A DNA stretch of 64,000 bases from Saprospiraceae bacterium. Lineage in GTDB: Bacteria; Bacteroidota; Bacteroidia; Chitinophagales; Saprospiraceae. The position numbers were made by a program, and so were the translations under genes. Numbering within the stretch: position 1 is the first letter of the stretch; each line of letters begins with the position of its first letter. Positions 4,987-14,344 of this stretch are shown piece after piece. The notes beneath the pieces were generated by a model. The model was not told where the DNA came from, did no database searches, and worked only from the letters and a program-made list of their open reading frames with translations. The DNA is taken from NCBI GenBank assembly GCA_016715405.1, contig JADKAE010000004.1, positions 119,693-183,692 of the forward strand, written 5' to 3'.

Positions 4987-5613
4987 CTAATCGCAAATCG
5001 TCGCATCTGGGTCTAAGCCGCAAGCCCTGAAGCCCATTGCCCGCCTGTTAAAGCGCCCTCTTTTGGGTTTCTTCCACCCTAAACACCTGTGGCTCTTGCA
5101 GCACCTTTTTTGGCGGTTTTCGTGCCCGGGGTAATACGCCAGCTTTTGGTCGGTGTTGGCGATAGCGGTATCAAACTTCTTATGGATATGGATTTCGCGC
5201 ACCTTGCCGTCGACAAAATCAATTTGCAGTTCGCGGGTTTTGAGGTCGGCTTCGAGTGCGTGGTAGGTAAGGCGGCTGAGGCGGCCGTTTTGCATGAGGC
5301 TGTCGACGGCGTATTTGTCGAGCCAGGCGGGGCGGTTGATGTCGGCTTCGGCAAAGAGGCGCAGCTCTTCGCTGAAGTCGACGCTGTCGAGGGTTTGTTC
5401 CTCAATGCGGCCGTCTATTTCGAGGCGTTTGCGCAGCTGCGGTTTTTTTGCCGTCAAGCTCGCAGCTTCCTGCTGGAAGTAGGTTTTTAGGTCAAAAAAA
5501 TGCGGATTGCTAAGCGGAACTGTTCCGGGGGATTCCTGCCGGCAGGCGGATAGTACAAGTAATAGAGATGTATTAATAAGGATGCAAAAAGAACGAAATG
5601 AACGGTGTGACAT
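4987..5613 (-). CDS. hypothetical lipoprotein
   Basis: 208-aa ORF with lipobox LLLVLSAC. The last ~45 residues look out of frame; an alternative frame gives ...KKVLQEPQVFRVEETQKRAL ending near 5048, so a frameshift near 5100-5115 is possible. Confidence 0.55.
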   Translation of the reverse strand: MSHRSFRSFCILINTSLLLVLSACRQESPGTVPLSNPHFFDLKTYFQQEAASLTAKKPQLRKRLEIDGRIEEQTLDSVDFSEELRLFAEADINRPAWLDKYAVDSLMQNGRLSRLTYHALEADLKTRELQIDFVDGKVREIHIHKKFDTAIANTDQKLAYYPGHENRQKRCCKSHRCLGWKKPKRGRFNRRAMGFRACGLDPDATICD

Positions 5614-6057: not shown

Positions 6058-6269
6058 TGCATGTATTCTTTGAAATCCTCTAACGGCTCATCGAAGTCAG
6101 GAGCAAGTATATATTTACCCTTAACTCGTCCAAAAACCCTTTTACCTTTACTTTTTTGAGCAGGCTGAGTTGTGTATTCATTTTTTAAAAATTCAATAAA
6201 GTGCATGACCTCGACCTTCAAGCTCTCAGGCAGCCGGTAAATTTCATAGATTATGCGTTGTTCATTCAT
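6054..6269 (-). CDS. DUF2281-type antitoxin
   Basis: 71 aa, MNEQRIIYEIYRLPESLKVEVMHFIEFLK...APDFDEPLEDFKEYM, the typical DUF2281 partner of PIN toxins. A 4-nt overlap with vapC suggests translational coupling. Confidence 0.75.
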   Translation of the reverse strand: MNEQRIIYEIYRLPESLKVEVMHFIEFLKNEYTTQPAQKSKGKRVFGRVKGKYILAPDFDEPLEDFKEYMQ

Positions 6270-6373
6270 TAGGCTTAATCTTTATTATGGAAGATTGATT
6301 GACAAATTACGCTCCTTATTGTAGACAACAAAATCAAGTCTGACACAGTTCACTCTAATATTTTGAAGTGCCA

Positions 6374-7902
6374 TCACCCCAGCAACACCTCCCCATCCAT
6401 CACCTCCGGCGCCGGTAAACCCAGCAGGAACAAAATCGTAGGGGCGATATCGGCCAGTTTGCCGTCTTTTACCCGGAGGCCTTTCGTGTCATTAGCCACA
6501 TAGATGCAAGGCACGGGGTTTTTGGTATGCGCCGTATTGGGCGTGCCGTCGTCGTTGACCATATAATCGGAGTTGCCGTGGTCGGCGATGATGATGGCTT
6601 CGTAGTCGTATTCGAGAGCCAGGGGGATGAGGCGACTCATACAGCCGTCGACGGTTTCGGCGGCCCTGACGGCTGCTGAAAATACGCCGGTATGCCCTAC
6701 CATATCGGTATTGGCGAAATTGAGACAGATAAAATCGGGTTGATTTTGCCGGATGTCGGCCATAATAGCTTCGGCGACTTCGGGGGCGCTCATCTCGGGC
6801 TGGAGGTCGTAGGTAGCCACCTTGGGAGAAGGTATCATGATGCGGCGTTCTCCGGGGAAGGTATCTTCGCGGCCTCCTGAAAAGAAGAAAGTTACGTGGG
6901 GGTATTTTTCCGTTTCGGCGATGCGCACCTGGGTTTTGCCGGCTGCCGACAGCACCTCGCCGAGCGTATTGCTCAAGTCGTCTTTTTGGAATACGACGTG
7001 CACGTTTTTATAAGTATCGTCGTAGCGGGTCATCGTCACGTAGTACAAGTCGAGTTTGTGCATATCGTACTCGGGGAAGTCCTGCTGCGTAAGCACCTGC
7101 GAAATCTCGCGGGGGCGGTCGGTGCGGAAGTTGAAGCAGATCAGGGCGTCGCCTGGTTGGATAGTGGCAATAGGGCTGCCATCGGGGTTTGTGCACACGA
7201 TAGGTTTGACGAATTCGTCGGTTTCGCCTTGTTCGTATTTGTGTTGCAGGAGTGCAAGGGCATCGGAGGAGGCTTCTCCTTTGGCGTGCACGAGCAGGTC
7301 GTAGGCCAGTTTGACGCGTTCCCAGCGCTTATCGCGGTCCATGGCGTAATAACGGCCGATTACGCTGGCCAGTTGGGCGTGCTGGGGGGCGATATGTTGT
7401 TGCAACTCGCGCAGGAAGCCCAGCCCGCTTTTGGGGTCGGTATCGCGGCCATCGAGGAAAGCGTGGATATACACCCGGTCGAGTCCGTGTTCCTGGCAGA
7501 TATCGCAGAGTGCTTCGAGGTGCTTGATATGCGAGTGCACGCCGCCGTCGGATACGAGGCCCATCAGGTGTAAGGCTTTGCCGCCGGCTTTGGCGTATTG
7601 CAGGGCTTCCAGCAGAGTGGCGTTAGTATGCAATTCGCGTTCGCGCACGGCTTTATTAATGCGGGCGAGTTCCTGGTATACGATGCGGCCCGCGCCGATA
7701 TTGAGGTGGCCCACTTCCGAGTTGCCCATCTGGCCGTCGGGAAGGCCCACTTGTTCACCGTGGGTGACCAACTCCGCGTTGGGATATTGCTTATATAGGA
7801 ATCCATAAAAGGCGTATTCGCCTGGGCGATAGCGCTTACTTCGGGTTTGGGGCCGTGCCCCCAGCCGTCGAGAATAACGAGGATAACGCGTGGTGCTTTC
7901 AT
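6374..7902 (-). CDS. gpmI: 2,3-bisphosphoglycerate-independent phosphoglycerate mutase (frame broken once)
   Basis: The N-terminus MKAPRVILVILDGWGHG (ORF 7564-7902) continues in ORF 6374-7969 at ..YPNAELVTHGEQVGLPDGQMGNSEVGHLNIGAGR... and ..IIADHGN. The indel lies near 7790-7797. Confidence 0.9.
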
Positions 7903-8178: not shown

Positions 8179-8559
8179 ATGAATACCATACTATCAGTCC
8201 TGTTGCTGAGTGTGTTAGTCAATACCCAAGAGGTAAATCTGAACGCCATTACCAAGGCGATCAGCGAGGGGAATGCCGAGGCGTTGGGGCAATATTTCGA
8301 CCAGTCGGTTGAAGTATCGGTGCTCGACAACGAAGACGTGTATGCCAAAGCGCAGGCGATAAAGGTAGTTAAAGACTTTTTCGCCCAAAATAAACCCAAG
8401 AGTTTCAGCCAGGTACACCAGGGCACCTCTAAGGGTAACGACTCGCAATACTGCATAGGCAACCTGGTAACTGCTACCGGCACTTTCCGGGTATATATTT
8501 ACCTGAAGGTCAACGGCAACAATTATACCATCCAGGAGCTTCGCTTCGACGAAGGCTAA
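8179..8559 (+). CDS. DUF4783 domain protein
   Basis: 126 aa with a signal peptide. ..VYAKAQAIKVVKDFFAQNKPKSFSQVHQGTSKGNDSQYCIGNLVTATGTFRVYIYLK... matches my memory of the DUF4783 family. Confidence 0.75.
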   Translation: MNTILSVLLLSVLVNTQEVNLNAITKAISEGNAEALGQYFDQSVEVSVLDNEDVYAKAQAIKVVKDFFAQNKPKSFSQVHQGTSKGNDSQYCIGNLVTATGTFRVYIYLKVNGNNYTIQELRFDEG

Positions 8560-8597
8560 ATTTAAGAGAGTGTGGGAGAGTGAGAGGGTTCTCTCCT

Positions 8598-9041
8598 TCA
8601 CTTCAGCAGCAATAAATCGTTAAACGCGTAGTTCAGCAAATCGAAAGTAGTCACAATACCTTTTAGTTTGCCGTCATTATCGACTACCGGCATTGCGTGA
8701 AACAGGTTTTCACGGAAGATGTCGGCGGCAAGCTCGATCTTATCTTCCGGGCGTAGTTTGGCTACTTGTTTCACCATCACCTCGCGCACCAACAAGGAGC
8801 GCATAATCGCCTCGTTATATTCCTCGCTTTTTTGCGTATTAAAAATGGTAAAGCCGTGTAGCAATTTCAGGTAGTCGGAATAACTAACGATTCCCACCAC
8901 CTTGCCTTTGTCTACTACTGGTATGTGGTGAATATGGTGCTCCTGGAAAATGGCTTGAACCTTATTCATAGTATCATCAGGAGCTACCGATAGTACTTGG
9001 GTGGTCATAATAGCGGCCACCGTGAGAGATTTGTCAGTCAT
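8598..9041 (-). CDS. CBS-pair domain protein
   Basis: The ORF is 8598-9089; the probable start is MTDKSLTVAAIMTTQVLSV (ATG 9041). It has two CBS motifs (HHIPVVDKGKVVGIVS, HAMPVVDNDGKLKGIVT) and no other domain. Confidence 0.85.
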   Translation of the reverse strand: MTDKSLTVAAIMTTQVLSVAPDDTMNKVQAIFQEHHIHHIPVVDKGKVVGIVSYSDYLKLLHGFTIFNTQKSEEYNEAIMRSLLVREVMVKQVAKLRPEDKIELAADIFRENLFHAMPVVDNDGKLKGIVTTFDLLNYAFNDLLLLK

Positions 9042-9113
9042 AGCCCTGGATTTTTCCGCTGCGAGCCTTGTTACTTGGTAGTAGCGCAAGCCGTGCGGTG
9101 GTTATTCGATTGA

Positions 9114-9557
9114 TTAGCCCCCTTTTTCCACGTAATTCGAATTAAAGACAAAGGACAGCAGGTCGTGAGTAGTGATAATGCCCACCAGTTTGCCTTCATC
9201 TACAATGGGCAATGCGTGGAATTGGTTAGCCAGGAAAATATCGGCGGCCAGTCCTATCGTATCGTCGGGTTCAATAAACAGGGGGTCTTCCGTCATAAAA
9301 TCGCGCGCTCGGAGCGATTCGTAAGCTTTTTCGGAATACCTTTTGCCGCCGGTGTCGAGCGATAGGAGGTAAGCCTGTTTAAAGAAGTCTTCCATACTGA
9401 TGATGCCCAGCAAGGCATCTGTGGCCGATTCTATTACGGGTATATGGTGGAAATTGTTTTTGCGAAAAATCTCTTTCACCATATCGGCGGTAGCATCGGG
9501 TGTAACGGTTACTACCCGGGTAGTCATAATTTCGCGCACAGGACGGTCAGCTTGCAT
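9114..9557 (-). CDS. CBS-pair domain protein
   Basis: 147 aa with two CBS motifs (HHIPVIESATDALLGIIS, HALPIVDEGKLVGIIT). It is a paralogue of the adjacent gene. Confidence 0.85.
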   Translation of the reverse strand: MQADRPVREIMTTRVVTVTPDATADMVKEIFRKNNFHHIPVIESATDALLGIISMEDFFKQAYLLSLDTGGKRYSEKAYESLRARDFMTEDPLFIEPDDTIGLAADIFLANQFHALPIVDEGKLVGIITTHDLLSFVFNSNYVEKGG

Positions 9558-9595
9558 AGCTCAATTGTTTAAATCATGATAGCGAGCGCTTTTCA

Positions 9596-10363
9596 TCAGC
9601 GCTCGGCGAAATAAGTTTTCGAGGCTTCAAAATTGCCAAAAACCCCGATTGCCTCCCAGATGCCGGGCGACAGGCCCTGGCACGCTGCAACCATTTTGTC
9701 GGCTTGCGCGCAGCTCGCCGATTCATTGAGTTGAACCAGGTAGTGCGACATGCGGTCCTTTTGTTGTTGAAGGTATGTCAGCTCGGCTTCGTCCAGCTTA
9801 TACAGCTCGGGGTCGGGAGATTCATTTACAGCCTGCCAGCACGACGTATTCAACAGCGCTATTTGCTGGGCAATGGCTTCCCATTCTGTTTGGCAAGCTC
9901 TTTTATCCGATAGCACTTGTCGCAACCAACTGGAAGCGGCCTGCGCATTGTAGAGATAGTCGGGGTAATAGGCTATTTCACGGCTTTTGCGCAATTCGGT
10001 CCATTCGTAGCGCACGTGTTCGAGCAAGTTGGCTCCTACCACGGCGCAATTGTTGTCAATTTCATATAGGGCATCACCCAGCCAGGCGTCGATGCGGTCA
10101 AATCCGTATTGCCAGGTTTTATCGTCTTCAAAGCGATGGCTGTAGCGCATGTCCACTTTTTGCCATTCAAAAGCCAGGTAGAGGGCTGCGTGTTTAGCGC
10201 GGTTGGCATCTCCCTGCATCGAATAATACAAGACAGGCACAAAGGCCTGGTCGAAATTCACCATAGCGCGTGTGAGCGCTTCGTCGTCGTCGTCTTGCCG
10301 GCAACCAGAAAATATCAAAGCGCCAATGCACAAAGCCCATATGAACACCTTGTTCTTTGCCAT
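9596..10363 (-). CDS. hypothetical lipoprotein, all-helical
   Basis: 255 aa with lipobox LIFSGC. No recognisable family. It is the first gene of an apparent lipoprotein-CBS-CBS unit. Confidence 0.65.
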   Translation of the reverse strand: MAKNKVFIWALCIGALIFSGCRQDDDDEALTRAMVNFDQAFVPVLYYSMQGDANRAKHAALYLAFEWQKVDMRYSHRFEDDKTWQYGFDRIDAWLGDALYEIDNNCAVVGANLLEHVRYEWTELRKSREIAYYPDYLYNAQAASSWLRQVLSDKRACQTEWEAIAQQIALLNTSCWQAVNESPDPELYKLDEAELTYLQQQKDRMSHYLVQLNESASCAQADKMVAACQGLSPGIWEAIGVFGNFEASKTYFAER

Positions 10364-10388
10364 AAGACGTGTGGTTGATGATCTTTAT

Positions 10389-10396
10389 CAAAATTA
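10389..10396 (-). promoter_or_regulatory. -7 promoter box (TAATTTTG on minus strand)
   Basis: Forward caaaatta, 25 nt upstream of ATG 10363. Confidence 0.5.
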
Positions 10397-10406
10397 AGCC
10401 CTAATA

Positions 10407-10436
10407 CCGCTGAAATATTATGACAATATTCAGCGG
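10407..10436. terminator. hairpin after the USP gene
   Basis: ccgctgaaatatt / aatattcagcgg form a 12-13-bp stem with loop atgac, about 55 nt downstream of the stop at 10490. Confidence 0.5.
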
Positions 10437-10441
10437 CCGGG

Positions 10442-10455
10442 TTGATTTTTATCAG
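10442..10455. promoter_or_regulatory. FNR/FixK-type palindrome TTGAT-N4-ATCAG
   Basis: ttgatttttatcag. Its centre at 10448.5 is 59.5 bp from the G end of the -7 box at 10389. Confidence 0.55.
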
Positions 10456-10489
10456 AAAAAGAAAGGGGTCGGTAACCAGCACAACAGGC

Positions 10490-11656
10490 TCAATCGTGCA
10501 ATACCAACAGCGGGATTTTTGTGTGAAATGCTTCTTTGGATGTGGTGCTGACATGAAAAACTTCGTCGACGAGGTTGCGACTGCGGTGTACCATACACAG
10601 CATGTCGGCGCCGTTGTCGGCCACAAAATCGTCGATACTGGTAATCGTGCCGTTGTCGCTTTTTAGTTCGTAGTGGAAGGAGTGCTCTACAGGCTCCAAT
10701 AATTGGTCGACAGAGGGATCGATGCCCTGGTCGGCTTCGCCCGTATCTTTGTGATAAATTTTGACCTTGACGTGAAAGCGCTGGGCCAGTTTCAGCAGGG
10801 CGTCTACCACCAAGCCGGAAGACAACTTCAGGTTGTCGATGGCCAATACGAAGGTTTGTAATGGCTTAAAAACAGCCGATTCGGGGATAGCCAGCACGGG
10901 GGTGCGCGTATTTCGTATTACACCGTTGGTGACGCTGCCAATGAACACCTCGCGAAGGCCGGTAGCGCCCTTGGTGCCCATCACAATGAGGTCGTATTCG
11001 GAAAGATCAGCCAGGTCGGCTATTACCGATACGGCATCGCCGCGCAATACTTTGGCTTCCATCGTTACGCCCAGCTCGAGTTTGGGTTTATTTTGTGCAA
11101 TAATCTTGCCAACCTCTTCGATGGCGTCTTGTTGGATGATCGACTCTACAGACAAAAACATGCCGGCAGAGCTATACACCTTGTAGGTGTGCAGCAAGGT
11201 GATCTTCGACCCAAAAGCGTTGGCTATGGCTATGGCGTAATCGAGGGCATTGCCGGCAGGGGCGGAAAAATCGGTAGGAACCAGTATCTTTTTCATAGGA
11301 ATATCTTTTGGTTCAAGATCCAGAAAATTAATCAGCAACTGCCTGAGTTCTGATACACTGGGAACCTCCTGTTGAAAAAGCACCTTCCCATTGATCGCAA
11401 GAGCGGGAATACCTGAAATATCGTACTGTAGAAGTTTGTCAATTTCTGTGACTTCTTCTACCGGCATATCAAGAGACAGCTCTGCCAATGCTTCAAGCAA
11501 ATTAGCCTTAAGCTTGCGATTAAGCGCTGATCCGATGCCCAAGAGTTCCAGCTTGGGGCGCTCTTTATGAGATGTCTTCTTAAATAACATGCAACCGAAG
11601 TAAACTACGGGATTTTTCGCCTTCCGGAAAACCATCTCGCAACTCGCGCCATACAC
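10490..11656 (-). CDS. Cys-less thioredoxin-fold (TM0983-like) domain fused to tandem universal stress protein domains
   Basis: Single ORF. Residues ~35-115 (LELLGIGSALNRKLKANLLEALAEL...GIPALAINGKVLFQQEVPSVSELRQLL) resemble the small Thioredoxin_3 family, with CxxC replaced by SALN. Then MKKILVPTDFS... gives two USP domains (DLIVMGTKGATG..., ADMLCMVHRSRN). A GTG start at 11656 fits the -7 box; an internal ATG at 11296 would give USP alone. Confidence 0.7.
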   Translation of the reverse strand: MYGASCEMVFRKAKNPVVYFGCMLFKKTSHKERPKLELLGIGSALNRKLKANLLEALAELSLDMPVEEVTEIDKLLQYDISGIPALAINGKVLFQQEVPSVSELRQLLINFLDLEPKDIPMKKILVPTDFSAPAGNALDYAIAIANAFGSKITLLHTYKVYSSAGMFLSVESIIQQDAIEEVGKIIAQNKPKLELGVTMEAKVLRGDAVSVIADLADLSEYDLIVMGTKGATGLREVFIGSVTNGVIRNTRTPVLAIPESAVFKPLQTFVLAIDNLKLSSGLVVDALLKLAQRFHVKVKIYHKDTGEADQGIDPSVDQLLEPVEHSFHYELKSDNGTITSIDDFVADNGADMLCMVHRSRNLVDEVFHVSTTSKEAFHTKIPLLVLHD

Positions 11657-11678
11657 CGGGCGTTCCCTTTATTTATGG

Positions 11679-11686
11679 CAAAAATA
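11679..11686 (-). promoter_or_regulatory. -7 promoter box (TATTTTTG on minus strand)
   Basis: Forward caaaaata, 22 nt upstream of the GTG at 11656. Confidence 0.5.
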
Positions 11687-11731
11687 CCCTAAAGTCAAGG
11701 GCCAAGTTCCCTGGCCTTGTCATTCTATCCA

Positions 11732-11745
11732 ATGATTTTTATCAT
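11732..11745. promoter_or_regulatory. FNR/FixK-type palindrome ATGAT-N4-ATCAT
   Basis: atgatttttatcat. Its centre at 11738.5 is 59.5 bp from the -7 box end at 11679. It lies in the divergent intergenic region between the USP gene and the FixL-like gene. Confidence 0.55.
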
Positions 11746-11829
11746 TGCAACCATATGTCCATTTCACTTATGCGGGCGGGAATAAAAATCTTTCTCCTCA
11801 ACCATGCGTGCGTTCACAAAATGATCGCT

Positions 11830-11837
11830 TATTTTTG
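11830..11837 (+). promoter_or_regulatory. -7 promoter box TATTTTTG for the kinase gene
   Basis: An exact TAnnTTTG match, 13 nt upstream of ATG 11851. Confidence 0.45.
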
Positions 11838-11850
11838 GCATTCTTAAACT

Positions 11851-13135
11851 ATGCTTAAATCAAGTATTTCAGACGACGCGCTACGGCTAAAGGCCATCAT
11901 CGAAACTGCCACAGACGTTATTATCATTATTGACGAAAATGGCGCGGTTGAATTGGCCAACGAAGCCGCTTTCCGTCTCTTTGGGTATACCCGCGAAGAG
12001 CTGGTGGGCCAAAATATTGCCATGGTAATGCCCGAACCCCACCGCAGCCGGCACGATGAATATATCAGGCGCTATTGCGAAACCGGCCACAAAAAAATTA
12101 TCGGCATAGGCCGCGAGGTGGAAGGCCGCCGCAAGGATGGCACCGTCTTTCCTCTGCGCCTCAGTGTAAGTGAAGTAAAATTGCAGGATAAACGCATCTT
12201 CGCCGGCATTATTCACGACCTCTCCGAACAACGCGCCGCAGAAAGTCGCATTATCAAGCTGAATGCCGAACTCGAACAACGCGTCGAGATGCGCACCGAA
12301 GAACTCGCCAACGCAGTGAATCAACTGCTCAAGATTAACAAAAAACTGGAACGCGAAATCAAGGAACGAGAAGCCGCCGAAATGCTGATTAAGGAAAATG
12401 AAACAAGGCTCAAGGATGCGCTTCAAAGAGAAAAAGAACTCAGCGAACTCAAGTCGCGCTTCGTGTCGATGGCTTCTCACGAATTTCGCACCCCCCTCAG
12501 CACGATCCTATCTTCCGCCGACCTCATAGAAGCCTATGTCGCCGGTGAACAACAACCCAAACGCGAAAAACACGTCAAACGCGTCAAATCGGCAGTGGCC
12601 ACGCTTACCGGTATCCTCAACGACTTTCTTTCCCTCAGCAGGCTGGAGGAAGGCCAAATCGTTACCGAACCCGTGCATTTTCAACTCCGCAGTTTTTGCG
12701 ACGAAATCACCGACGAAATTCACGGACTGCTCAAACCCGGCCAGCATATCGTACACCTCATCCCGGAAGAACCCGTGAATTTGTTTTTGGACAAAAAATT
12801 TCTTAAAAATATTTTCTTTAACCTCTTGTCCAACGCCATTAAATACTCCGACGCCGATCTTCCTATCGAATGCGAAACCACGCTGAAAGACGACAAGCTC
12901 TGCATTCGCATCACCGACCAGGGTATCGGTATCCCCGAAGAAGAACAACAACACCTCTTTACCCGCTTTTTTCGCGCCCACCATGTGGAAAATATTCAGG
13001 GTACCGGTCTCGGCCTGAATATCGTGAAGCGATACGTAGAACTCATGCGGGGGCTATTTCTTTGAAAGCGAATTGAGCAAAGGCACCACTTTCGTTGTAG
13101 AAATTCCGCTAGTGCAGGAAAAAAACGAGCTTTGA
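11851..13135 (+). CDS. FixL-like haem-PAS sensor histidine kinase (two indels near the 3' end)
   Basis: The PAS segment MPEPHRSRHDEYIRRY..IIGIGREVEGRRKDGTVFPLRLSVSEV..FAGIIHDLSEQ parallels the Bradyrhizobium FixL haem pocket. It also has a coiled coil, H-box MASHEFRTPLS, and N/G boxes NLLSNAIKYS, DQGIGIP, GTGLGLNIVK. The expected C-terminus ELHAGAISFESELSKGTTFVVEIPL is recovered by single-base repairs near 13044 and 13061. Confidence 0.85.
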
Positions 13136-13224: not shown

Positions 13225-14267
13225 ATGAAGAAAATACTCGTTATAGAAGACAATGCCGACGTAAGGGAAAACCTGGAAGAGATTCTCGAATTATCCGGCT
13301 ATGATGTCCTGCTCGCAGAAGATGGCACGGTAGGCGTGGAAAAAGCGCTCAAAGAAATGCCCGACCTCATCTTGTGCGATGTGATGATGCCCAAACTCGA
13401 CGGCTACGGCGTACTCAATATCCTGAGCAAAAAAAGCCAGACTTCAAATATTCCCTTTATTTTCTTACCGCTAAAGCGGAAAAAACCGATTTCCGCAGGG
13501 GCATGAATCTCGGCGCCGACGATTATATCACCAAGCCATTTTATAAAGACGAATTACTATCGGTGATCGAAACCCGCCTGCGCAAAAGCGAACTGGTGCG
13601 CAAGCAGTTTGACCGTACCGAACAAGGCCTCAGCGCTTTTATCAACGACGTGCGCGGCTACGAGGAATTGCGCAAACTGTCGAGCGAGCGCAAGACAAAA
13701 AACCTCAAAAAACGCGAAATGCTCTTCGAAGAAGGCGATTACCCGCGGTATATTTATTTTGTAAAAGGCGGTAATGTCAAGGTCTTTAAAACCAATGAAG
13801 ACGGCAAAGAGTATATCATCACTATCGCCGGCCCCGGGGATTTTCTGGGTTACATGGACCTCATCAAGGAAAGCCGCCATACCGAATCGGCTGCGGCCCT
13901 CGAAGAGGCCGAGGTGAGCCTCATCCCCAAAGAAGATTTTATCGCCCTGCTCTACGCCAACCGCGACGTATCTTCCCAGCTTATCAAGATGCTGGCCAAT
14001 AATATCGCTGAAAAAGAAGAACAACTCCTCCACCTGGCCTATAACTCGGTGCGCAAACGCGTGGCCGACGCCGTGCTGCTGCTCGCCGAAAAAACGGACT
14101 CCGGCGATATCAATATCCTGCGCGATGACTTAGCCCGCATTGTGGGCACAGCCAAGGAAAGTGTGATCCGCATGCTCACCGAATTCAAAGAAGACGGCTA
14201 TATCGATATCAAAGACGGTATTATCGTGGTGAAAAATCGCGATAAGCTGCGGAATATGCCCGGTTGA
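13225..14267 (+). CDS. response regulator: receiver domain fused to Crp/Fnr-type cNMP-binding-like and HTH domains (one indel)
   Basis: REC domain MKKILVIEDN..LILCDVMMPKLDG..IPFIFL|TAKAEKTDFRRGMNLGADDYITKPF, with a 1-nt deletion near 13467. A Crp-like beta-barrel (MLFEEGDYPRYIYFVKGGNVKVF) and HTH (IVGTAKESVIRMLTEFKEDGYI) follow. The REC C-terminal half and the Crp part share one uninterrupted ORF (13374-14267). Confidence 0.85.
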
Positions 14268-14270
14268 TAA

Positions 14271-14344
14271 GAGAATGGGAGAGGGGAGAGGAGGGGCGAG
14301 AACTGTATCCCCGCTCTCCCCTCACCCCCTCACCCCCTCCCTCT
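14271..14344. terminator. periodic-arm hairpin (GGGAGAG / CTCTCCC type) between convergent genes
   Basis: gagaatgggagaggggagaggaggggcgag / ccccgctctcccctcaccccctcaccccctccctc. The right arm overlaps the last natB codons. Confidence 0.5.

Follow-up and report, generated by a model that had tools for sequence, protein, structure and literature searches.

Within a 64-kb stretch of Saprospiraceae DNA, analysed here in full as the window and numbered by its own coordinates, a 12-nt palindrome, TGATAAAAATCA, occurs in identical form before two predicted promoters, one of a gene fusing a thioredoxin fold to universal stress protein (USP) domains (trx-usp) and the other of a predicted lipoprotein gene followed by two CBS-pair genes. 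Nearby lie genes for a FixL-like histidine kinase and for a response regulator with a CRP-type output. This arrangement raises the question of whether the palindromes are true regulatory sites and, if so, which protein would read them and in response to what. The answer that we favour, with a probability of about 0.7, is a small low-oxygen regulon of the adjacent hybrid regulator, in which one protein would do the jobs of both FixJ and FixK. The domain identities were computed directly, as were box conservation, box spacing and the co-occurrence of the box with the regulator gene.

Twin palindromes at two predicted promoters

The sites concerned are given below, promoter 1 being that of the lipoprotein-CBS operon and promoter 2 that of trx-usp. 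Scores in bits come from a weight matrix derived from related genomes, and L001 and L003 are close relatives of the window.

11733..11744 (minus 11744..11733), no strand: promoter 2 distal box TGATAAAAATCA, centre 11738.5 (about -64.5), 22.1 bits
11711..11722, minus strand: promoter 2 half-site TGACAAGGCCAG, conserved, exactly 22 bp from the distal box
11679..11686, minus strand: predicted sigmaA -7 box TATTTTTG of the trx-usp promoter, an exact TAnnTTTG, invariant in L001 and L003
10443..10454 (minus 10454..10443), no strand: promoter 1 distal box TGATAAAAATCA, centre 10448.5, 15.8 bits
10421..10432, minus strand: promoter 1 proximal box TGAATATTGTCA with 7.3 bits, set 22 bp off the distal one; the -7 G is 37.5 nt away (about -42.5)
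10379..10390, no strand: promoter 1 third box TGATAAAGATCA, an exact TGAT-N4-ATCA, 16.2 bits
10389..10396, minus strand: predicted sigmaA -7 box TAATTTTG of the lipoprotein-CBS operon promoter, an exact TAnnTTTG
11830..11837, plus strand: predicted -7 box TATTTTTG of the kinase-regulator operon, preceding ATG 11851 by 14 nt, with the box centre 98.5 nt away

Both central observations of the earlier, sequence-only reading held: the same 12-mer is present at both promoters, surrounded by the minus-strand 15-mers cTGATAAAAATCAAc (10455..10441) and aTGATAAAAATCATt (11745..11731), and in each case 59.5 nt separate its centre from the G of a perfectly matching TAnnTTTG box. That reading had counted one box per promoter, which is right for promoter 2 with its single full box; promoter 1 carries three, TGAATATTGTCA and TGATAAAGATCA having been overlooked. 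The operator layout of the CRP/FNR type, an inverted repeat with a TGA-N6-TCA core in a 5-N4-5 arrangement, was found in both copies of TGATAAAAATCA, in TGATAAAGATCA and in TGAATATTGTCA. The promoter 2 distal box reads TGATAAAAATCA toward trx-usp, with its T-run on the plus (kinase) strand, and sits within the divergent region separating trx-usp from the kinase gene, while the half-site TGACAAGGCCAG occupies the place of the relatives' second full box and scores -25 bits when read as one.

These sites are far more frequent than composition would give. With at most one mismatch, the TGATAAAAATCA 12-mer has 4 matches in the window against 0.34 expected, and TGAT-N4-ATCA has 5 in 64 kb against 0.76 expected, three of the five falling inside 10379-11744. 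Exactly three sites reach 14 bits or more, all of them in the promoter 1/2 stretch, where 0.27 would be expected under a whole-window Markov model and 0.10 under intergenic composition; none of 300 simulations with intergenic composition reached three, so that the motif is commoner here than AT-rich intergenic DNA alone would make it. No further members of the regulon were found in the window, its remaining TGAT-N4-ATCA or near matches (21543, 24116, 63757) scoring below 10 bits, and Rfam and tRNA scans of the window found nothing. When promoters 1 and 2 were registered on the box, 50 of 135 positions were identical, comprising the box, the -7 box and random matches. Together with the conservation described below, these findings indicate that the two identical palindromes are real, evolutionarily conserved, putative regulator-binding boxes at set distances from their promoters.

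The box is conserved upstream of the kinase gene across Saprospirales

A scan of species-representative genomes yielded 80 loci from Saprospiraceae, Lewinellaceae, Haliscomenobacter and Phaeodactylibacter (Saprospirales), with regulators 65-99% identical to the query; a metagenome scan for distant members, using generic receiver motifs as search patterns, added two usable full-length relatives, L081 and L082. The regulator gene is directly preceded by the kinase gene in every one of the 80 loci and in both distant relatives. Divergent from the kinase gene in nearly all 80 is a thioredoxin-fold or CBS gene, and a lipoprotein-CBS-CBS cluster is often nearby. The thioredoxin-fold protein of the relatives is always Cys-less, either fused to USP or encoded separately (about 100 amino acids) ahead of a usp gene.

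The divergent intergenic regions are otherwise unalignable, yet each carries TGAYTTTTRTCA, usually as TGACTTTTGTCA. When all trinucleotide dyads with gaps of 0-12 nt were counted, with the close relatives L001-L003 excluded, TGA-N6-TCA ranked first: every kinase-upstream region has it (65 of 65), where 9.2 would be expected. In the 600 nt before the kinase gene, 70 of the 76 assessable loci carry a box that scores 18 bits or more, orthologous to the promoter 2 distal box, and L081 and L082, at 40% identity, also have a TGAT-N4-ATCA box before the kinase gene. Over all loci, 130 sites of at least 14 bits fall in 144 kb of intergenic DNA compared with 54 in 955 kb called coding, an approximately 16-fold higher intergenic density. 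The sites are thus conserved in relatives, a check that the sequence-only reading had proposed, with the spacing also kept at distant lipoprotein promoters.

The weight-matrix consensus, rrTGAYtTTTRTCAyy, refines the FNR/FixK-type consensus TTGAT-N4-ATCAA first suggested for the boxes: the TGA-N6-TCA core and the 5-N4-5 layout stand, whereas the family as a whole shows TGAY-TTTT-RTCA, mostly with C as its fourth position (TGAC...GTCA), and does not conserve the outer T/A. The T-run of the box is on the kinase-coding strand in practically every locus, so that it reads TGAYAAAARTCA toward the divergent gene. The box centre is accordingly an oriented T4 run (window 10441-10456 and 11731-11746) rather than a random spacer, its A-run facing the presumably activated gene, a feature that an A-tract bend or an additional contact could explain.

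Boxes were also observed elsewhere in the related loci. An extra strong box lies just 3' of the regulator gene (about 9200-9560) in L008, L010, L014, L020, L026, L030, L041 and L060, from Lewinellaceae, Phaeodactylibacter and some others; the one in L060, with a matching position in L038 and L075, precedes an opposite-strand gene for a small membrane protein of about 70-90 amino acids without a family match. In L061, L071 and L073 (about 5062-5500) the thioredoxin-fold gene is absent and a box precedes the gene for a conserved protein of 125-137 amino acids (KLQKDFQSQFANLKIEFYKAAH...) without a Pfam match.

Promoter geometry suggests a tandem of boxes

All promoter distances were counted from predicted -7 boxes, whose placement is borrowed from a flavobacterium: the sigmaA TAnnTTTG box of Flavobacterium psychrophilum spans -12 to -5 (PMC9723704), and 36.5 nt therefore corresponds to -41.5 and 59.5 nt to -64.5. 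Around strong boxes, the only second boxes within 45 bp were those at +/-22 or 23 bp. In the direction of the A-run, 18 of 85 strong boxes have the G of a -7 box (at most one mismatch) at exactly 36.5 nt from their centre, with other offsets occurring no more than 6 times.

The layout of promoter 1 is kept where the lipoprotein is only 22-35% identical, its elements being a distal TGATAAAA(A/G)TCA, a proximal TGA-N6-TCA that follows after 22-23 bp, and a TAnnTTTG box. Counted from the -7 G, the distal box is at 59.5 nt in L035, L037 and L039 and at 58.5 nt in L016 and L043, and the proximal box is at 36.5 nt in all five. The distal 12-mer of the window recurs unchanged in L001, L003, L035, L037, L039 and L040, with TGATAAAAGTCA in its place in L016 and L043; the window shares the layout, with its proximal TGAATATTGTCA 1 nt further out. 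Both window -7 boxes are kept in L001, and L003 keeps that of promoter 2, its promoter 1 T run being 1 nt shorter. On these predicted start sites, 36.5 nt from the -7 G (about -41.5) is the canonical position and 59.5 nt (about -64.5) the distal member of a 22-23-bp tandem. The equal offset noticed earlier is a real architectural feature and marks the distal position of the tandem; a strictly fixed 59.5 nt was rejected, as the spacing recurs in distant lipoprotein promoters at 59.5 or 58.5 nt and varies by 1 nt at promoter 2 of L001.

The remaining architectural details fared less evenly. A GC-rich inverted repeat had been placed between palindrome and -7 box at both promoters, the one at promoter 1 being the following:

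10406..10437, minus strand: stem-loop GCCGCTGAATATTGTCATAATATTTCAGCGGT, overlapping the proximal box and beginning 53 nt past the usp stop codon

This hairpin is significant (-15.5 kcal/mol, z -3.4) and contains the box TGAATATTGTCA, whereas that of promoter 2 is not (z -1.2). It is kept only in L001 and L003 and lost in distant relatives, and the inverted repeat was rejected as a shared architecture, the conserved part being the second box; the stem-loop may be the terminator of trx-usp. The ttaggg described before the two -7 boxes abuts the one at promoter 2 and lies 2 nt away at promoter 1. Of the start codons proposed, ATG 10363 is sound because a lipoprotein signal peptide comes next, while GTG 11656 is only the earliest start in frame and L003 does not keep it; trx-usp probably starts at ATG 11635 or ATG 11590 instead. 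The promoter 2 leader AAAGGGAACGCCCGGTGTATGGCGCG (window 11640-11678), downstream of the -7 box, is conserved in L001 and L003, unlike its GTG, and may be a structured 5' leader.

A predicted haem-PAS kinase beside a receiver-CRP/FNR regulator

The two genes of the candidate sensor-regulator pair are:

11851..13135, plus strand: soluble histidine kinase with FixL-type haem PAS, HisKA and HATPase(_c) domains; the first frame ends at 13065, the corrected frame at 13135
13225..14267, plus strand: response regulator with a receiver, a degenerate cyclic-nucleotide (cNMP) barrel and a CRP/FNR helix-turn-helix

Kinase residues 12-141 match the haem PAS domain of Bradyrhizobium (B. japonicum) FixL (1dp6/1drm, 8js5; E 1e-33 to 4e-35) and are about 50% identical to the FixL O2-sensing domain; DosP-type haem PAS domains are the next-best PAS matches (1e-18). 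Equivalents of the proximal haem His200, of Arg206 and of the distal Arg220 are kept (MPEPHRSRHDEYIRRY...KIIGIGRE), and the position of BjFixL His214 is Lys. The NCBIfam FixL model is the second-best model match, but its 173 bits are far under the equivalog cut-off of 850, so the protein is a FixL homologue and not an equivalog or orthologue of rhizobial FixL; we regard it as a predicted FixL-type haem-PAS kinase. Many relatives (L004-L022 and others, about 6200-7900) have two tandem FixL-like PAS domains in this kinase, the window and the Haliscomenobacter clade having one.

The regulator open reading frames 13225-13506 and 13374-14267 are two frames of a single gene, and joining them at a T-run gives a 347-residue protein that differs by one residue from the database protein P0001. 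Its domains are Response_reg (PF00072, 5e-17), cNMP_binding (PF00027, 3.7e-22) and HTH_Crp_2 (PF13545, 3.4e-13). The receiver has E8-D9, D52, T82 and K104, T82 standing at the conserved Thr/Ser position (P0001), and among 17 members of 38-55% identity D52, K104, E312 and R316 are invariant and D9 nearly so. With this acidic pocket, the phospho-acceptor Asp, the Thr and the Lys, and a cognate kinase gene adjacent, the protein has the hallmarks of a two-component regulator, and a cNMP-type beta-barrel followed by a Crp-type helix-turn-helix places it in the CRP/FNR superfamily. The C-terminal 215 residues share 28% identity with E. coli CRP over 180 residues, and the Crp-family chain 4ev0 of the PDB is matched at E 4.5e-23. 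In the recognition helix SRETVGR of CRP corresponds to AKESVIR, with R180, E181 and R185 aligned to K311, E312 and R316; the E..R pair pointed out by the sequence-only reading is therefore present as E312 and R316.

The regulator nevertheless belongs to none of the named types. It is not CRP proper, the cAMP receptor, as of the contacts Glu72 and Arg82/Ser83 only the Ser is kept (CRP E72 is Y210 and R82 is E221). It has no FNR-type N-terminal cysteine cluster, the ligand of a [4Fe-4S] centre in FNR, its N-terminus being the receiver and its only cysteine C51. FixK, which FixJ controls at the level of transcription, stands alone without sensory input, whereas here a 125-residue receiver precedes the CRP module in all homologues; FixJ joins its receiver to a LuxR/GerE helix-turn-helix, whereas the output here is HTH_Crp_2, and the locus has no FixJ-type gene. 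A chain with both a receiver and a CRP module is absent from the PDB. The family is large, with about 2,700 representatives at the 50%-identity level (E <= 1e-30), the best 150 of which are nearly all full-length at 340-360 residues. A structure prediction from 12 sequences reached a pLDDT of 71.9 and a pTM of 0.42, with low confidence in the linker and barrel, and no claim made here rests on it.

Target genes and the proposed circuit

The predicted targets in the window are trx-usp and the lipoprotein-CBS-CBS operon, with the kinase-regulator operon probably a target as well:

10490..11656, minus strand: target gene 1, trx-usp, encoding a 388-residue protein in which a Cys-less MTH895-type thioredoxin fold is joined to tandem USP domains
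9596..10363, minus strand: target gene 2 and first gene of the operon, encoding a predicted lipoprotein of 255 residues
9114-9557 and 8598-9089, minus strand: two CBS-pair protein genes downstream of the lipoprotein gene

In the thioredoxin fold of trx-usp, the CxxC motif is replaced by GIGSALNRKL. The lipoprotein gene is the first of the operon whose promoter architecture is best conserved. Its product matches nothing in Pfam or NCBIfam, and a word-based search for homologues gave only 7 proteins, all unannotated. An open reading frame at 8215-8601 overlaps the second CBS-pair gene by 4 nt.

Among the relatives, genes preceded by a box include further usp genes, Hsp20 (L057, L059), a fused ccoNO cbb3 oxidase (COX1+FixO; L070, L074), a FixI-type P-ATPase (L077), thioredoxin and further CBS genes. 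This content, judged by analogy, fits hypoxia: FixK and FNR control a micro-oxic set and the mycobacterial DosR regulon a set of USP, alpha-crystallin and CBS proteins, and the targets of the relatives combine both.

In the circuit that we propose, the soluble FixL-type haem-PAS kinase would sense low oxygen, with deoxy-haem activating the kinase as homology suggests, and would phosphorylate Asp52 in the receiver of the regulator. The CRP/FNR-fold dimer would then bind TGAY-N4-RTCA boxes through E312 and R316, a step to which the recognition helix and the strict co-occurrence of box and gene point. Tandem dimers on one helical face would activate TAnnTTTG sigmaA promoters from class II (about -41.5) and class I (about -64.5) positions. 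In the window, trx-usp and lipoprotein-CBS-CBS would be driven by two promoters that combine a strong distal box with a proximal one, 22 bp off, that is weak or a half-site. Autoregulation is likely, since the promoter 2 box lies inside the divergent region shared with the kinase-regulator operon, and the third box over the promoter 1 start site may limit expression or switch it off once the regulator is abundant, a form of self-limitation. The suggestion that a small regulon of CRP/FNR-type sites lies under the Crp-type regulator of the adjacent FixL-like pair thus gains support from the FixL-type PAS, the HTH_Crp domain, the conserved box and the recurring offset.

Points against the low-oxygen regulon and alternative explanations

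Several observations weigh against this proposal. The direction of regulation, the binding and the oxygen signal are inferred, the whole circuit being deduced from sequence. The related loci have a common ancestry, and it was on kinase-upstream boxes that the weight matrix was trained; independent of that training are the dyad count and the promoter 1 sites, the latter lying outside the region used for it. The window -7 boxes are predicted, as consensus matches, and TAnnTTTG on its own is not enriched (50 in the window against 40 expected), so that the -7 boxes gain weight solely through the fixed offset, which at promoter 2 of L001 is 58.5 nt. The proximal positions are weak, at 7.3 bits in promoter 1 and a half-site only in promoter 2. 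The third box TGATAAAGATCA, found only in the window, L001 and L003, overlaps the promoter 1 -7 box, covers about -6 to +6 of the predicted start site and so has a repressor-like position, as have the kinase-side boxes at about -28.5 in some relatives. For CRP/FNR regulators elsewhere in the genome, the evidence covers 64 kb. Finally, the kinase and regulator genes carry frameshifts, which, if real, would leave the system dead in this strain.

Three alternatives survive about equally, each of them improbable. According to the first, a different, stand-alone CRP/FNR regulator encoded elsewhere binds the boxes, the FixL-like operon is merely a target and the receiver-Crp protein reads another sequence. 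TGA-N6-TCA is a generic core of many CRP/FNR sites, and several CRP/FNR members are usual in a Bacteroidota genome, of which 64 kb was inspected here. A study of a Saprospiraceae metagenome-assembled genome (MAG) also placed CRP/FNR homologues in a MalR-like group (PMC8510549). Against this, the box co-occurs with the receiver-Crp gene in the 70 of 76 loci and the two relatives at 40% identity, no other CRP-family gene was found in the 64-kb window or within 8 kb in any of the 80 loci, and the TGA-reading E..R pair is kept and invariant across the receiver-Crp family, all of which makes the stand-alone regulator unlikely.

Equally doubtful is a regulator that binds the boxes but acts mainly as a repressor, through negative autoregulation and a shut-off of stress genes relieved by the signal. 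This would suit the third box at 10379-10390, centred on the predicted start site, and the kinase side of L009, L011, L012, L017 and L062, where the box lies 23.5 nt from TAATTTTG (about -28.5) and hence inside the core promoter, compared with about -103.5 from the predicted -7 box in the window. However, the dominant offset of 36.5 nt (about -41.5), with tandem partners two helical turns upstream, is the classical arrangement of an activator. In the promoters that were read, those of L023 and L054 only, the spacer next to a 36.5-nt box has no TTTG -33 element, as at activator-dependent promoters, and cbb3 oxidase, USP and Hsp20 genes are activated in hypoxia by FixK, FNR or DosR.

A third and similarly slim chance is that the pathway runs as in the low-oxygen circuit while the haem-PAS kinase answers to NO, CO or redox and not to O2. 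Haem-PAS domains can take several diatomic ligands, and the Lys in place of His214 would be compatible with such a change. The roughly 50% identity to the O2-sensing domain of FixL and the retention of the O2-discriminating distal Arg220 speak for oxygen instead, as does the presence of a high-affinity cbb3 oxidase and a FixI-type assembly ATPase in the regulon of the relatives.

The frameshifts raise the further reading that the two genes are truly inactivated pseudogenes. Compared with L001, which is 93% identical, the kinase gene has two 1-nt homopolymer deletions (about 13053 and 13060) that break the frame, and the regulator gene a 1-nt deletion in a T-run (about 13459) that splits it. 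These read as long-read assembly errors. Single bases are also missing at homopolymers in a phosphoglycerate mutase gene (7798; frameshift) and an ABC permease gene (15503) relative to L001.

The weakest explanation, a chance product of AT-rich intergenic DNA or a duplicated promoter segment, is rejected and already refuted, for although an A5/T5 run at the box centre is common in intergenic DNA and TAnnTTTG alone is no commoner than expected, three sites of at least 14 bits stand against the 0.10-0.27 expected, the promoters share only box and -7 box, and box and spacing are conserved where the surrounding DNA cannot be aligned.

Beyond the regulator gene, a purine-rich/pyrimidine-rich inverted repeat, GGGAGAGGGGAGAGGAGGG / CCCCGCTCTCCCCTCACCC, lies at 14270-14344, where the regulator and ABC-permease genes converge; the equivalent place in L001 is occupied by (GAGTGT)n/(ACACTC)n, and the repeat is probably a bidirectional terminator of unusual composition.

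Relation to known oxygen-sensing circuits

The closest parallel to the proposed circuit is the rhizobial FixL-FixJ-FixK cascade, which likewise has a FixL-type haem-PAS kinase, soluble or in the membrane, and ends in a protein of the CRP/FNR fold with TGA-N6-TCA boxes before the cbb3 oxidase (fixNO) and fixI-type genes; in rhizobia this protein is FixK and its box TTGA-N6-TCAA. Here, by contrast, the receiver is fused directly to the CRP/FNR module, with neither a FixJ (receiver plus LuxR/GerE) nor a separate fixK gene, and one transcriptional step is therefore skipped relative to rhizobia. The setting also differs, being Bacteroidota (Saprospirales) with TAnnTTTG promoters, and the core regulon comprises USP, CBS and lipoprotein genes rather than nitrogen-fixation genes. 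From its sequence features, the circuit would work like FixLJ-FixK with the FixJ and FixK steps merged, without being a member of FNR, CRP, FixK or FixJ.

With FNR/ANR (TTGAT-N4-ATCAA) the system shares a 5-N4-5 palindrome with a TGA/TCA core, a Glu and an Arg four residues apart, and, going by the predicted -7 boxes, sites equivalent to -41.5 and about -61 to -65. It departs from them in lacking the N-terminal Cys cluster, in an input that would be receiver phosphorylation, and in a box with r/y flanks instead of outer T/A, mostly C at position 4 and an oriented T4 centre. E. coli CRP offers the same cNMP-barrel and helix-turn-helix and a use of tandem or single sites on one helix face at class II- and class I-like distances that resembles the one predicted here; the present regulator has lost the cAMP contacts, its half-site is TGAY and not TGTGA, and its polymerase is of the Bacteroidota sigmaA type with -7/-33 elements. 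DosS/DosT-DosR (DevR) of mycobacteria combines a haem-based hypoxia kinase with an autoregulated response regulator, as predicted here, and its regulon likewise holds many USP, alpha-crystallin/Hsp20 and a CBS-domain protein, but the Dos sensors carry GAF-haem rather than PAS, and DosR has a NarL/LuxR-type output and a different operator.

The MalR-like CRP/FNR homologues of the Saprospiraceae MAG (PMC8510549) share with the present system the bacterial family, the wastewater-type habitat and the transcription-factor superfamily. They were assigned to carbon sensing via a Bacteroides MalR matrix, and in that paper the word 'receiver' occurs 0 times and a FixL-like partner is never mentioned (PMC8510549). 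Literature searches directed at regulators of this kind turned up neither a characterised receiver-Crp regulator nor a study of FixL in Saprospirales.

Activated sludge and marine particles, in which Saprospiraceae and related bacteria abound, are places where oxygen fluctuates, and to our knowledge nothing is known of how they sense it. The locus offers a complete testable circuit that runs from sensor and regulator through operator consensus and promoter geometry to a list of targets. We would go further, though at only slightly better than even odds, and propose that receiver-CRP/FNR fusions are a large uncharacterised class of Bacteroidota response regulators in which phosphorylation replaces the cAMP or Fe-S input and which, with a FixL-type kinase, would form the main oxygen switch of aerobic Saprospirales, merging FixJ and FixK, activating sigmaA (-7/-33) promoters from the exact sigma70 class II and class I distances and limiting itself through the operator at promoter 1. 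If this is true, a CRP/FNR-fold output joins the well-studied kinds of response regulator, and phosphorylation controls a fold otherwise known under small-ligand or metal-cluster control. It would also give the first precise activator geometry at Bacteroidota -7/-33 promoters, where the sharp 36.5-nt offset (about -41.5) would suggest that sigma70-type contacts between activator and polymerase are reused with the divergent sigmaA of Bacteroidota.

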